A stretch of DNA of 64,000 nt, taken from Pseudogymnoascus verrucosus (Eukaryota). This document shows positions 6,959-63,150 of this stretch, piece by piece (positions within the stretch are counted from its first letter, which is position 1; each line of letters starts with the position of its first letter). The notes below the pieces were generated by a model, which saw only the letters and a program-made list of their open reading frames with translations, made no database searches and was not told the DNA's origin. Position numbers and translations under genes: made by a program. The stretch lies in the NCBI GenBank assembly GCA_001662655.1, contig KV460247.1. One strand, 5' to 3'.

Positions 6959-8348
6959 TTATTTTGGAACCCTTCGAATTTTAAATCCCTCAGGACCATG
7001 TTTAAATTTGGCATCCAGCCTAGGATTCAGTGGACACTTACTGGAAGGGTCACCCGCCACAGTGACCACAGTGCTCTCATTCCCGATGAGCAGGACCATG
7101 CAGGAGCCATTTTGCTACGCCGATATCCCCAAGGCTACGGTTCCATCCAGTGGAGGTGTTATTGGAGTAGCAGTTTACGCGTTGAAGGCGCTTGGAGTAT
7201 TGGATTTTGTGTGTTGGCCGTTCTGTTTAGCAATATGTGCCGGGGTTGATCCACGGATGGAGATTTTGCTGAAAGGAGCAAGTTGCACATGACGAGACTG
7301 GAAGGCGAGTTTATCCATTGGCTGCAGTATGTGTGTGTGTCTTTTTGTACACTTTTAGAGATCGCCCATACCCTAATTAAATCTCGATAAACAAACTGAC
7401 TGAGGCTTTGTGACCGAAAGTTCATACTGCTGATCTCAAAGGGGCTGAGGATCCTGCATCGCCATCGACGTTGTTCGCCTCATCTGCACGTTTGATGCAT
7501 TGCAAACACATCGCGAAATGATAAGAGCTATGCGGATGCATAATACCGCATCCGGATCCACCGGTGGGGAATGCAGGGCGGTTTGGATGCAGGTGCATTG
7601 ATAGGTTTCTGTGCCTCGGTCTAGACTTCATACGTTTATGGCTATAAAGCTCCCACGAATCCAACTCGTGGACAGCTTACTACAGCCTCGCCAATCCTTT
7701 TTTTTTTTGGCCGACTTCGAATGACCTGAGTCGCATTTTGAAGATGCCTCTCGCCAGCATATATTGGAGCACGCGTACATAACGAATGAGGGAAAGGGTT
7801 GCAGGCAGTGCAGTTTCTAGACGACAAATGTACGTGATGATCATGCAGAGTAATTTATAATACAGAATATATATGCTATTGGATAGTTTGTTTGTCCTGA
7901 TTAGTCCTCCTGGCGCACTGGTCTACGCCAACAGGGTGGATGGGACGGGCTGTCTAGGCCCTTTGTTCTTTATTCCACGAACGATATTTAAATAAGTGAC
8001 GCTCATGTCCATGAAAAGGATAAGAGGTAGGCAATATGTGGTTTGTGTTCATACAAAAAGAAAATAGTTGGCTGGTCTTGGCCGAGGCGCGCGCATGTCC
8101 TTGGCTTTGCCATGGAGAGGCAAAGACGACATTTGGCCTTATACTTACCAGTATCCCAAGAGCGGTGTCATGAGAGGCGGTTTGCATCATGATCCATTCC
8201 TTTAGATATGGCGAGGAAGTCGGGCTTCCCTTGTTGATTGTGACATTGTCAGTAGAGAATGGAGAATTCACAGACGGAGGAGAATTTCTTATATGAGCAT
8301 TAAGCGAAAAACTGTTAGCGCGGATGATCATGGAAACTGGAGCGATAA

Positions 8349-8356
8349 CACGTGAC
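8349..8356. promoter_or_regulatory. CACGTGAC E-box (Cbf1-type bHLH site) upstream of the snoRNA host transcript
   Basis: Exact GTCACGTG on the minus strand about 60 nt upstream of the host donor site. The same motif occurs near 1250 and near 51683. Function is inferred. Confidence 0.35.
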
Positions 8357-8417
8357 TGCGATTTTCATACAAATTCAAAATTCTCTCGCTGATCTGGTTC
8401 TCTTCTTCTTCATGGTA

Positions 8418-8559
8418 AGCACGACTAAATCAACCGTCGTCCAGATATTTCCAACTGGCCGATCGGTCAAATTTACGTGCTAGATGATTTTGGAGACGAC
8501 GAATAATTGGCAATGACTTGTGACCAAACAACCATTGCTGTCGACGACTCCAAACATTT
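8418..8559 (+). ncRNA. Box H/ACA snoRNA, probably intronic in a non-coding host
   Basis: Hairpin 1 (AGCACG/CGTGCT lower stem), H box AGATGA at 8482-8487, hairpin 2 (TTGGAG/CTCCAA lower stem, GCAATG/CATTGC upper stem), then ACA at 8554-8556 followed by TTT. Both pockets end 15 nt before their box. GTAAGC donor at 8415. Confidence 0.8.
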
Positions 8560-9086
8560 TCATATTTTCTTAACCTTTTTGGAGACCTGGTCTAGAACCT
8601 TTTGAGATCGGCGGATAAGCCGCTTCTCCAAGTTGGAGGGCTTCACTTATTGATATAATTAAAATATATTTACAGCTATCCATACCATAGCAATGCTACA
8701 ATGATATTATTTCTCTATCACAAAATATAGCTGGCGAAGGGTGCAGGTCCAACTAAACTTGCTTCGGTAACACCCGCAAACGGTTCCTCCTGAACCGTTA
8801 ACCAAACGATAAGGAGCCTCAAAAGGAGTACGTACCATACCTTGGATACGTTGCCGTTTTTGTAAATACGAGCTTCCCCGACAACATTTGCATGTGAATA
8901 GGGCGGCAGTTTTATATTTCTTCATTTATTGACCTTTCACTCGCTTTACCTATGATAATTTGCGACCGCCAGAGTACCAACCCACACCACGAAGCCATGT
9001 TGTGAAGCCCGATGTTCCAGAGATAAGCCGATAGATGACGTCCACCCCGTCTCCAACGCAAGAAGTGGCACATTGGCCTCCAGGCA

Positions 9087-11855
9087 ATGTCTGAACGATG
9101 GAATCGAGAATCGCTTTCCATTGCCAATTCCGCGCCACAAGATAAAGAAGTCCTAAGGGCACTATCGCGATCACCACATCCCTATCATCGACATAATCCC
9201 GAACTCCGGCGCGCCAGGCACAATCTGAGCACCACTTCCTCACGAGACCAATCCCCCCGCCCTACATCCAGCCCCGAAAGCTTTGTCGTCGATGGACCGA
9301 TACTTCATTCCGAGGATCTATACAGACACAGCACCGATAGCGATAGCGGGACAGAAGCAGACGATGAGCACTTCCTCCTCGGGTTGCCGGCACCCCGCTC
9401 GCGGCCGCGGAAAGGCTTACGAGGCCTCGAGAGATCGAGCTCAACATCACCAAGTCCTGCGTTATCTGTGGTTGACCTCCAACAAGCCTCGCGGCAACAA
9501 GAATACATATCCGATGCCCTGAAGACACTTAAAAATGAGGAGGAACGGCGCTCTCGGGAAGCATGGGAGAAGTTCAGGGCAACAAGGAAGACGGAGGTTC
9601 TACGACGGGTTTTGGAGGTTGTTCTTTTGCTTGGCCTGGGACAAATAGTATATTCCGGAAATGGGAGAGTTACAGCTTCTCTATGGAAGAACGGTATGTT
9701 TGTGACGGTCTATAATTTGGCAAATACTAATTCCCTTCCAGAGTTTACGTACCAGGCCGCCATCATGGGGTCATTAATGGTGCTCTACCCTATTCGACTA
9801 TCCTATTATTTGGCTTCTCAAAATTCCTTCAAGAAGTGGCCCTCACTTCGTATCCCGGCGACTTTCGACCCAGCGCCGCTTCTCTACCCCTCCCTTCTCA
9901 CGAATTTTGTCACCACTCTCCTATCCTGTTCGAACCAGGGGATAGTTCTCCCTAATATAATCCTCGGCATTTCGTCACTTATGCCCGAGTTGCTACCTTC
10001 TTTTGCTAAAGGCGAAGATGTTGGTACATTACGTTGGCTTTTGTCTTGTATACCCCTATTTGCTTGGCAGTCGCAGCCGGATCTTCTTCGAGATAAAAGC
10101 TTGCTTCCCGAGAATAATATCAGCCCAGAGATCCTGGTTTTGATATGCCCCTTACATCAAGTAACCTGCTCGGTGCTGAGATATTTAACGACAACCAGCC
10201 TGTTGGAAACCGAGCTGCAACTTCTTTCTATTTCACTTATTAATATTCTGCTGTTGTCAGCTTCGCCACAAATAGTGATCTTGCAAGCTCTCATGTGGGG
10301 AGGGGGGCTGTCATTGCTCATATCTTGTGGCTTCGCCCTTAGATGGGTGATTGCGCTGGAAAGGATTCCAAGATGGAGGTTTAAGCGGAGTGGAAACGCC
10401 CTGGGACGCCCGATAAAATCAACATCAAAGTCGATTTTAAAGGAGCCTCTAGGAAAACTGAGCGAAATTCTACACTTCGATCGGCCTCTTACGCTGGACA
10501 GCGAGGACGATGTTTCATCGGCGGTGCAGAGAGTCAGGCCAATGCGATTGAAGACAAACCTGACAAAATCCAATACGGTTCAATTTGAGAAAGGCTCAAT
10601 ATCTGCAGTGTCTGAGGAACCAGAAGAGGAGTTCGCCTCCCGTATCGACGGAGCTCTAGCCGATGTGACGAATCGGGAAAGGAATCGAAGAAACACGTTC
10701 CCATCGATTCGCTCACCTAAACGCTACAGTGGCCTCACTGCATCGGGTCGAAAGAGGCGATCGGCTTCCTCTAGTCTTCAGGGCTTCTACAATCTTACCG
10801 TAGCACAGGCAACAATCCGCAAGGGGCTATATGCAGCCTATGTCTACTTCTGTGTTCTCCTCATCATCTTCGCAGGAGTCCGCACATACGTCGGGAATGT
10901 CGCCTTATCTGGCGCTGAACCCATCGGCTGGGCCCTAGCATACATGTTTGGAAACTACCCCTGGCTCCGAATGCAAGTTCTCACCCTAAACCTCGACCAC
11001 TGGATCCCAGTCCCCGAACACCTCCCAGCCGTCCCGGTAACATACTTCCACGGCCCCTGGATCTCCCAACTCCGCTCCAACATCGGCCTCGCCAACACCC
11101 GCCTCCTCATCTCGACCTACTGGCTCGCCATCATAATCCTCGGCCTCACAATCGTCATCAACCTCTCCTCCACCGTCGAAGTTGACACCCGCCGAAAGGT
11201 CTTCCACTTCATGATGGTCGCTATGCTCCTGCCGGCCACCTACATCGACCCCACCTTCGCCGCCCTCGCACTATCCCTCATCCTCGCTGTCTTCCTCCTC
11301 CTCGACCTCTTCCGCGCTACACAATTACCTCCTCTTAGCAAACCTATCGCTTACTTCCTTACGCCCTATGTGGACGGTAGGGATCTGCGCGGGCCAGTGG
11401 TGATTAGCCACATCTTCCTCCTAATCGGCTGCGCAGTACCGCTCTGGCTCAGCCTCGGCGCCGTCACCAGAGCCGACGATGGATGGGAAATCCCAACTCG
11501 GGACGTGAGCATGGTATCCGGCGTCATCTGCGTCGGTATGGGCGACGCAGCCGCGTCGCTTATCGGGCGGCGGTACGGGCGGCGCAAGTGGCTGTGGCCT
11601 GGTGGCAAGAGTTTAGAAGGCAGTTTCGCATTTGCGGTCGCGGTGACAGTGGCGTTGATGGCGGCGAAGGTGTGGTTGAGGGTTGGTGGGTGGGAGGATG
11701 GAGGCGCGGTCGGGGACGGGTGGGGGAGGACGTTGGGGAAGGCGGTGGTGGCTGCGGGGATGGCGAGTACGACTGAGGCGGTGTTGACGGGGGGGAATGA
11801 TAATGTGGTTGTGCCGGTGGTGTTTTGGTTGTGTGTTAAGGGGTTGAGTATTTAG
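9087..11855 (+). CDS. SEC59: Dolichol kinase (CTP-transferase/cytidylyltransferase family, polytopic ER membrane); likely intron 9694-9741
   Basis: Motifs VDTRRKVFH, DGRDLRGPVVISHIFLLIGC, GMGDAAASLIGRRYGRRKW, GKSLEGS and NDN; many hydrophobic segments. Confidence 0.9.
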   Translation: MSERWNRESLSIANSAPQDKEVLRALSRSPHPYHRHNPELRRARHNLSTTSSRDQSPRPTSSPESFVVDGPILHSEDLYRHSTDSDSGTEADDEHFLLGLPAPRSRPRKGLRGLERSSSTSPSPALSVVDLQQASRQQEYISDALKTLKNEEERRSREAWEKFRATRKTEVLRRVLEVVLLLGLGQIVYSGNGRVTASLWKNGMFVTVYNLANTNSLPEFTYQAAIMGSLMVLYPIRLSYYLASQNSFKKWPSLRIPATFDPAPLLYPSLLTNFVTTLLSCSNQGIVLPNIILGISSLMPELLPSFAKGEDVGTLRWLLSCIPLFAWQSQPDLLRDKSLLPENNISPEILVLICPLHQVTCSVLRYLTTTSLLETELQLLSISLINILLLSASPQIVILQALMWGGGLSLLISCGFALRWVIALERIPRWRFKRSGNALGRPIKSTSKSILKEPLGKLSEILHFDRPLTLDSEDDVSSAVQRVRPMRLKTNLTKSNTVQFEKGSISAVSEEPEEEFASRIDGALADVTNRERNRRNTFPSIRSPKRYSGLTASGRKRRSASSSLQGFYNLTVAQATIRKGLYAAYVYFCVLLIIFAGVRTYVGNVALSGAEPIGWALAYMFGNYPWLRMQVLTLNLDHWIPVPEHLPAVPVTYFHGPWISQLRSNIGLANTRLLISTYWLAIIILGLTIVINLSSTVEVDTRRKVFHFMMVAMLLPATYIDPTFAALALSLILAVFLLLDLFRATQLPPLSKPIAYFLTPYVDGRDLRGPVVISHIFLLIGCAVPLWLSLGAVTRADDGWEIPTRDVSMVSGVICVGMGDAAASLIGRRYGRRKWLWPGGKSLEGSFAFAVAVTVALMAAKVWLRVGGWEDGGAVGDGWGRTLGKAVVAAGMASTTEAVLTGGNDNVVVPVVFWLCVKGLSI

Positions 11856-63031: not shown

Positions 63032-63150
63032 TGAACAGAGTGGGACTCGAACCCACGCCACTTTCGTGACCAGGAAACTATATGATGATATATCACATGT
63101 ATTAAGGTATAACCTTAACCTGGCGCCATAACCATCTCGGCCATCTGTCC
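63032..63150 (-). tRNA. tRNA-Leu(AAG) with 37-nt intron (63112-63076)
   Basis: Minus strand reads GGACAGA TGGCCGAGATGGTTATGGCG CCAGG TT AAG G [intron] T CCTGG, long variable arm CACGAAAGTG, GTGGGTTCGAGTCCCAC, TCTGTTC A. Oligo-T terminator downstream. Confidence 0.95.

Follow-up and report, generated by a model that had tools for sequence, protein, structure and literature searches.

Does the intergenic DNA ahead of a dolichol kinase-like gene of Pseudogymnoascus verrucosus hold the gene of a guide RNA, and if so, which nucleotide would this RNA modify and how would it be expressed? The question is raised by a stretch of 64,000 nucleotides from contig KV460247.1 (assembly GCA_001662655.1), hereafter called the window. 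A preliminary description of this stretch had pointed to a box H/ACA small nucleolar RNA (snoRNA) hidden in an intron of an apparently non-coding host gene, with a target in the ribosomal RNA (rRNA) of the large subunit (LSU). We find that positions 8416-8559 of the plus strand in all likelihood encode such an RNA, predicted to act through its first pocket on a uridine of LSU helix 86. In mechanism it is an ordinary H/ACA guide, which adds to a known class and brings no new mechanism.

Layout and conservation of the candidate RNA

All the elements of the hairpin-AGATGA-hairpin-ACA layout reported for this locus are present between 8418 and 8556 on the plus strand. The first hairpin opens with the lower stem AGCACG (8418-8423), paired with CGTGCT (8476-8481). 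Enclosed between these strands are the 5' strand of pocket 1 (8424-8433), an upper stem with its loop (8434-8466) and the 3' strand of pocket 1 (8467-8475). The upper stem is interrupted, its two strands being CCG-TCG-(T)-CCAG (8434-44) and CTGG-(C)-CGA-(T)-CGG (8455-66). The H box AGATGA (8482-8487) follows. The second hairpin (8490-8553) combines a lower stem, TTGGAG (8490-95) with CTCCAA (8548-53), pocket strands at 8496-8509 and 8539-47, and an upper stem-loop (8510-38) in which GCAATG (8510-15) pairs with CATTGC (8533-38). It leads directly to the ACA box at 8554-8556. The claim that both boxes lie 15 nt from their upper stems is exact: 8467-81 separate the first upper stem from the H box, and 8539-53 the second from the ACA. 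Assuming that the ACA lies three nucleotides from the mature 3' end, the RNA would measure about 140-145 nt; matches of the covariance models described below extend over 8416-8562. No open reading frame (ORF) of at least 60 aa overlaps positions 8332-8706.

The predicted minimum free energy of the candidate is -46.1 kcal/mol, against -27.75 +/- 3.7 kcal/mol for 200 shuffled versions, none of which folds as well (z -4.96). The opposite strand also reaches a z of -4.05, but carries no boxes. To measure how often the layout itself would be met, both strands of the window were scanned for two hairpin-and-box units, each with a lower stem no shorter than 5 bp, pocket strands of 4 nt or more, a spacing of 14-16 nt and an upper hairpin folding at -8 kcal/mol or below. 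The scan returned 48 H-type and 47 ACA-type units and a single full combination, the one at 8418-8556. Thirteen dinucleotide-shuffled windows yielded one full combination in all, or 0.077 per window. Since chance would produce the layout in about one window in 12, independent support was required, and it is the conservation of the candidate in relatives that sets it apart from a chance arrangement.

These relatives come from 60 fungal metagenome loci that contain the neighbouring dolichol kinase gene, at 32-90% protein identity. With blastn, the snoRNA was recovered in two of them, called L095 (91% identity over 189 nt) and L071 (74.7% over 150 nt). The L071 kinase is 67% identical to that of the window, and when the 1787-nt intergenic query was compared with this locus, only the snoRNA and a second element, treated further below, could be aligned. 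The three sequences (window, L095 and L071) served to build a covariance model, R1, which, together with a further model, R2, was searched over the window and the 60 loci (61 sources, 542,602 bases). R1 added a fourth copy, L069:7817-7963 (E 0.0025, falling to 5.6e-25 once this copy was included in the model), and R2 a fifth, L094:3082-3229, on the other strand (E 2.5e-4). All other covariance-model matches were noise, with E above 1.

Orthologous copies do carry compensatory changes of the kind that the preliminary description had proposed to look for. In the model alignment of the five sequences, 87.6% of the 145 pair cells are standard pairs, as against 28-41% when the partners are slid by 1-3 columns, and 15 of the 29 stem pairs have changed on both sides with pairing kept, both figures being inflated by the fitting of this alignment to the structure. 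On four of five measures, none of 500 column shuffles matched the observed values, and 32 of 500 did so for the number of further pair types. A plain MAFFT alignment also contains two such exchanges, A8494-T8549 becoming G-C in L071 and A8512-T8536 becoming G-C in L095. By helix, 93% of the cells of the lower stem of hairpin 1 are paired in the five sequences. Five of the 11 pairs of its upper stem have changed on both sides, with CCG/CGG at the pocket invariant and the loop variable. The lower stem of hairpin 2 has seen all six of its pairs changed on both sides across the five copies.

The remaining positions are constrained unevenly. Mean identity to the window is highest in the two strands of pocket 1 (0.88 for the 5' strand, 0.83 for the 3' strand) and lowest in the loops (0.55 and 0.44), and the ACA is invariant in the five copies. 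This pattern of constraint fits a predicted guide RNA. At the H position, the window, L095 and L071 share AGATGA, while L069 has ATAATT and L094 has ATAATC, both of which keep the first and third A and have no sixth A. In fungal H boxes, the first and third A are described as highly conserved and the sixth as more variable (Canzler 2018). By our own count, the spacing in L069 and L094 is 13-15 nt for the H position and 15-16 nt for the ACA. Closer to the window, contigs of related organisms, drawn from four runs, include among the differences listed 8552 A>G, which turns a U-A into a U-G pair, and 8526 A>G, in a loop. A contig of run X3, 274 nt long, crosses 8435-8684 without a joint; the type of this run was guessed, and contigs cannot show the level, ends or strand of a transcript. 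X3 leaves some stretches uncovered, such as 8218-8434, and the contigs have no joint at 8414/85xx, from which nothing follows for or against splicing.

Architecture, conservation and covariation together bear out the assignment to the box H/ACA snoRNAs. A catalogued family was sought with less success: the snoRNA families of Rfam 15 gave no match at gathering score in the window, and none at E up to 10 in 8200-8800. The family is probably uncatalogued so far.

A uridine of helix 86 as predicted target

According to the predicted structure, the RNA would fold into two hairpins, with the H box AGATGA between them and the ACA at the end. As follows from the family, it is expected to assemble with Cbf5, Nhp2, Nop10 and Gar1. 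Within the internal loop of hairpin 1, two guide strands, UCA(A) and AAAUCAA, would pair with (U)UGA and UUGAUUU of the rRNA, respectively, on either side of an unpaired U-N. Brought in this way to the catalytic position, at 15 nt from the H box, the uridine at the base of helix 86 would be isomerised to pseudouridine (Psi).

The LSU segment on which this proposal is built, CUUGA-UU-UUGAUUU, is present in eukaryotic LSU rRNA, the segment expected around the target of pocket 1 being CUUGAUUUUGAUUU. An rRNA motif scan of genome contigs gave 44 loci, many of them short eukaryotic LSU contaminants with identical flanks, and the same scan of viral contigs gave 21 loci, none of which was rRNA. The target reference, L130, is a complete fungal ribosomal DNA (rDNA) unit taken from a 24-kb contig with rDNA repeats. 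Its small-subunit (SSU), 5.8S and LSU genes were confirmed by Rfam, and a group I intron was removed from the LSU before scanning. This intron occupies positions 4854-5196 of L130 (2204-2546 of L044); the contig is filed under a bacterial metagenome-assembled genome and, being eukaryotic, must be a contamination of that bin.

Targets were scanned over SSU, 5.8S and LSU as contiguous pairing around an unpaired U-N, with each arm contributing 3 pairs or more and the two together 8 or more. For pocket 1, each of the five copies gave exactly one match on L130, and always to the same uridine, the one that follows CUUGA in the LSU. The pairing, (u)uga-UU-uugauu(uu), amounts to 11, 10, 10, 9 and 11 Watson-Crick pairs across the five copies, and in L094 the 3' arm is longer by one matching base. 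A score of at least 11 was reached by 16 of 3000 shuffled arm pairs and by 69 of 3000 random 10+9-mers from the window (0.5-2.3%). On the 5' side, the predicted guide AAATCAA (8427-33), which would face rRNA UUGAUUU downstream of the target U-N, contains AATCAA, invariant in all five copies. On the 3' side, the predicted guide TCA(A) would face (U)UGA upstream of the target U, and A8470 is a T in all four relatives. The segment and the site proposed earlier stand; the 4+7 bp also proposed is weakened to 3+6 to 4+7 bp, because TCA is the conserved part of the TCAA arm. The target uridine is position 2725 of the Rfam LSU model, where it is the second nucleotide on the 5' side of a hairpin of 9 bp.

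Is this uridine modified elsewhere? Modification positions from the literature were projected onto the fungal sequence, and an offset was sought that brings all of them onto the right bases, a mapping that assumes a collinear local sequence and that the anchors support without proving. For Saccharomyces cerevisiae, one offset fits seven anchors of seven (Um2724, Um2729, Psi2735, Gm2791, Gm2793, Gm2815 and Psi2826) and equates the target with 25S U2716; Table 1 of Sloan 2017 contains no pseudouridine between Am2640 and Psi2735. For Chaetomium thermophilum, one offset also fits seven of seven, including U2678, C2696, Psim2690 and Psi2703, the last two being placed 'next to loop' and 'next to GAAA tetraloop', respectively, in Supplementary Table 2 of Wild 2025. 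The target then corresponds to 26S Psi2675, reported as detected by four methods (Wild 2025). For human 28S rRNA, one offset of 45 fits the five nearby sites (Psi4263, 4266, 4269, Um4276 and Psi4282), and the target becomes Psi4263, listed at 98% (Taoka 2018). The same offset fits three of five more distant anchors; at Psi4323 and Psi4331, the fungal sequence has a base other than U. None of the modification positions searched for occurs in the main text of Taoka 2016.

The preliminary description had given this site as pseudouridylated in human and not in S. cerevisiae. As far as the published positions go, this holds: anchor mapping leads to Psi4263 on the one hand and to the unmodified U2716 on the other. 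In P. verrucosus, the target uridine is a predicted pseudouridine, by this mapping homologous to Psi2675 of C. thermophilum and Psi4263 of human.

Pocket 2 presents another picture. The same scan of SSU, 5.8S and LSU of L130, with at least 3 pairs per arm, gave no rRNA target common to the five copies, and the 5' strand of this pocket differs in every lineage. The LSU target suggested for it, GACUGUCUAAUUA, does exist in the LSU, yet in the required geometry hand pairing gives 2 G-U pairs plus 6 pairs, below the 3 per arm of the scan, and the suggestion is not supported. Hairpin 2, conserved in structure, is probably a second structural module required for assembly of the ribonucleoprotein, or a guide for a substrate outside those scanned. 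The association of one conserved guide hairpin with one lineage-specific hairpin is described as the pattern of several fungal families (Canzler 2018).

A probable divergent neighbour and alternative readings

How the candidate is expressed is best approached through the second element that aligns in the same intergenic region. It is a very conserved, H/ACA-like RNA gene predicted from sequence at about 8046-7886 on the minus strand, divergent from the first. Over about 160 nt, it is 90-94% identical in L071, L069, L094 and another of the loci, L075, and it is conserved in L095 too. Read on the minus strand, it has a conserved ACA (7891-7889) at its 3' edge, a few nucleotides beyond which conservation stops, and an H-like AGAACA at 7969-7964. 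The pocket of its 3' hairpin (strands 7942-7936 and 7905-7898) stands 14 nt from the ACA and has a single rRNA match, of 5+5 Watson-Crick pairs, at SSU position 1289 of L130. With nine of ten yeast anchors at offset -1, this position equals, by the published coordinates, yeast 18S Psi1290, a site of snR83.

We take the assignment of the second element, a minus-strand H/ACA snoRNA that would guide the Psi1290 equivalent of 18S rRNA, as a lead and not as settled, because its 5' hairpin is unclear and the evidence on its strand is mixed. By RNAalifold, both strands reach similar energies (-36.8 and -34.3), and among wobble pairs, one favours plus and two favour minus; on this footing, a plus-strand gene was considered and rejected. 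The likeness to snR83, the yeast guide of 18S Psi1290 and Psi1415, lies in the pocket pairing around the Psi1290 equivalent; unlike snR83, the second element offered no guide for Psi1415, and it has no Rfam match. Other readings in and around the block were discarded. The boxes of a possible box C/D RNA (GTGATGA at about 7834 and CTGA at 7897-7900) are unconserved in L071, L069 and L094. A 125-aa minus-strand ORF (7954-8331) has no Pfam match and overlaps a block with 1-nt indels. On the plus strand of the element, 14 nt are complementary to the LSU, but part of this match lies beyond the conserved block.

In the window, L095, L071, L069 and L094, the two elements stand head-to-head, in the same order and orientation and 320-460 nt apart. 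In L094, the pair is inverted and located about 6.3 kb from the kinase gene, its linkage being kept. Such linkage in all five lineages suggests independent, divergent transcription. We therefore favour, with some reserve, a snoRNA transcribed on its own, sharing its spacer with the divergent second gene, over one excised from a host intron. The spacer of about 370 nt (8046-8415) may be a bidirectional promoter. By eye, it contains CACGTGA (about 8349-8355) and TAGCGCGG (about 8322-8329), both also found upstream of the snoRNA in L095 and L071, as well as TATA-like stretches and a CT-rich tract that ends in CATGG right before the snoRNA.

The host intron put forward in the preliminary description would be 181 nt long (8415-8595) and belong to a short non-coding host, from which splicing, debranching and exonuclease trimming would release the same H/ACA snoRNA. 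We hold this origin to be possible but rather unlikely. Its motifs are real: GTAAGC at 8415-20, TTAAC at 8570-74 and AGs ending at 8584 and 8595, the latter within TAG 8593-95. The flanking exons are indeed minimal, since the frame opened by the ATG at 8412-14 and continued from 8596 stops after 21 codons. Against a gene of its own, it must be said that both the window and L095 have the good GTAAGC donor, the TTAAC branch-like site and the TAG, and that CTTCATGG and CATGG ahead of the RNA and TAGAA behind it are kept in L071. The donor is retained in L095 only, the closest relative. L071 has GTTCAG in its place and no branch-like match, and neither L069 nor L094 has a donor adjoining the RNA or within about 140 nt upstream. 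It is this lack of conservation of the intron signals that weakens the host-intron reading, and the conserved head-to-head partner and the CT-rich, TATA-like spacer fit an independent promoter. Precedents exist for both arrangements in Neurospora crassa, where intronic snoRNAs in non-coding hosts are reported and are mostly box C/D, two of 20 H/ACA genes being intronic and 16 of 20 intergenic (Liu 2009, PMC2780460).

Besides the flattered pair counts, several observations tell against the identification of the RNA and of its target. The RNA is predicted from DNA sequence alone. The element was found in just four of the 60 kinase loci, about 35 of which, by our own count, include 1 kb or more of upstream sequence. 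The H position of L069 and L094 can pair perfectly, in our own reading, with the 3' strand of the lower stem of hairpin 2, which is unusual for a hinge. As the rRNA of the species lies outside the window, the target sequence is that of another fungus and of LSU contigs present as contaminants. One pairing arm is short, with 3 bp in four of the five copies. Random pockets score at least 9 in 5-16% of cases and at least 10 in 2-7%. The target leaves unexplained why ATATTTA, the remainder of the 3' pocket strand, is conserved, and this sequence can pair with TAAAT inside the RNA.

The last of these points would also suit a genuine RNA of the H/ACA type with its pocket 1 directed at a different substrate, be it a small nuclear RNA (snRNA), another rRNA site or, as a chaperone, the pre-rRNA. 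The whole 9-nt 3' strand is conserved, though 3-4 nt of it pair with the proposed site; matches of 9-10 pairs arise by chance in 2-16% of random pockets, and the target scan covered SSU, 5.8S and LSU rRNA. We nevertheless consider such a substrate improbable: the helix 86 uridine is the sole match in SSU, 5.8S and LSU for all five copies, the match is lengthened in L094, and human and another filamentous ascomycete have, according to the positions published for them, a proven pseudouridine at this uridine. Still more improbable, to the point of being nearly negligible, is that there is no RNA gene at all, the double hairpin and its boxes having arisen by chance or the locus being a regulatory element conserved as DNA or a minus-strand hairpin resembling a microRNA, as a layout met about 0.08 times per shuffled window and a minus strand that folds nearly as well could suggest; stems that vary on both sides with pairing kept, U-G pairs of relatives that are valid on the plus strand only (e.g. 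8491/8552), and an ACA and two guide strands that persist while the loops drift, the guide matching a known Psi site, all speak for an RNA. The minus-strand match to mir-4796 was rejected on its own figures (20.7 bits for a gathering score of 90, E 0.15).

Known guides and genomic surroundings

As an H/ACA snoRNA directed at helix 86, the candidate shares with the fungal box H/ACA guides the hairpin-H-hairpin-ACA layout, a pocket-box spacing of 14-16 nt and a bipartite pairing of 9-13 bp around an unpaired U-N, although none of those held in Rfam 15 matches it. The yeast guide snR189 acts nearby, on 25S Psi2735, 19 nt downstream of the site of the candidate, which is unmodified in yeast. By anchor mapping, the human guide of 28S Psi4263 would share the homologous uridine, yet none of the snoRNA families in Rfam detectably resembles the candidate in sequence or structure.

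A closer comparison is offered by the H/ACA snoRNAs of N. crassa, also a filamentous ascomycete, which are mostly intergenic and independently transcribed (16 of 20; Liu 2009, PMC2780460). Nearly all are longer than 160 nt, whereas the candidate has about 140 nt. Taking CD6 Um2687 of N. crassa as yeast Um2729, we estimate the equivalent 26S position at about 2674, near which none of the 20 has an annotated target in that source; seven of them are orphans, and the candidate may be identical to one of these. The available account of a complementary DNA screen of Aspergillus fumigatus gives 27 box C/D candidates and mentions no H/ACA snoRNA. The H/ACA table of Trichophyton rubrum has no clear equivalent, Trnc_64 (25S-Psi2714) being about 10 nt away by a rough offset. 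The fungal snoRNAome of Canzler 2018 was built by homology with five species as the seed. '25S-393' does not occur in the main text of that paper, the target being, by our own arithmetic, alignment coordinate 25S-3933, and its supplements may list the family. In C. thermophilum, 112 pseudouridines of rRNA were mapped, and H/ACA guides are described as not annotated and not easily deduced (Wild 2025).

Other features of the window and its relatives were met along the way. Just downstream of the snoRNA, 9087-11855 of the plus strand form an uninterrupted 922-aa ORF that resembles Ascomycota dolichol kinases (protein atlas, score 0.98) and has no Pfam match at E up to 0.001. Within it, at 9232-9272, contigs of the related-organism runs X3 and X11 skip 39 bases. 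This is an in-frame length difference in the poorly conserved N-terminal part and not a canonical intron, the ends being CA..AG. Between 7000 and 9600, run X21 contains two versions, one nearly identical to the window and one about 87-90% alike, which shares many differences with X3 and X11; two related genomes or haplotypes must be present in that run. The only Rfam match of the window at gathering score is a tRNA gene on the minus strand (63032-63150), whose anticodon-loop position is interrupted by an intron of 42 nt.

In filamentous fungi, guides of the H/ACA class are poorly catalogued. We regard as an evenly balanced proposition that the conserved head-to-head pair, with each gene transcribed independently, joins a guide for the Psi1290 equivalent of the SSU to the founder of an uncatalogued filamentous-ascomycete family that installs a helix 86 pseudouridine common to human (Psi4263) and C. 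thermophilum (Psi2675) and absent from budding yeast. The covariance model can be used to find this family elsewhere. A conserved guide with a clean match to a mapped site makes for a testable guide-site assignment, here for a pseudouridine shared by humans and absent from yeast. If correct, it would be the first guide assignment for the fungal helix 86 pseudouridine, and guide and modification would either have been lost together in the yeast lineage or have been gained independently. The divergent pairing with an snR83-like gene would moreover provide a simple case for the co-regulation of small- and large-subunit modification guides.

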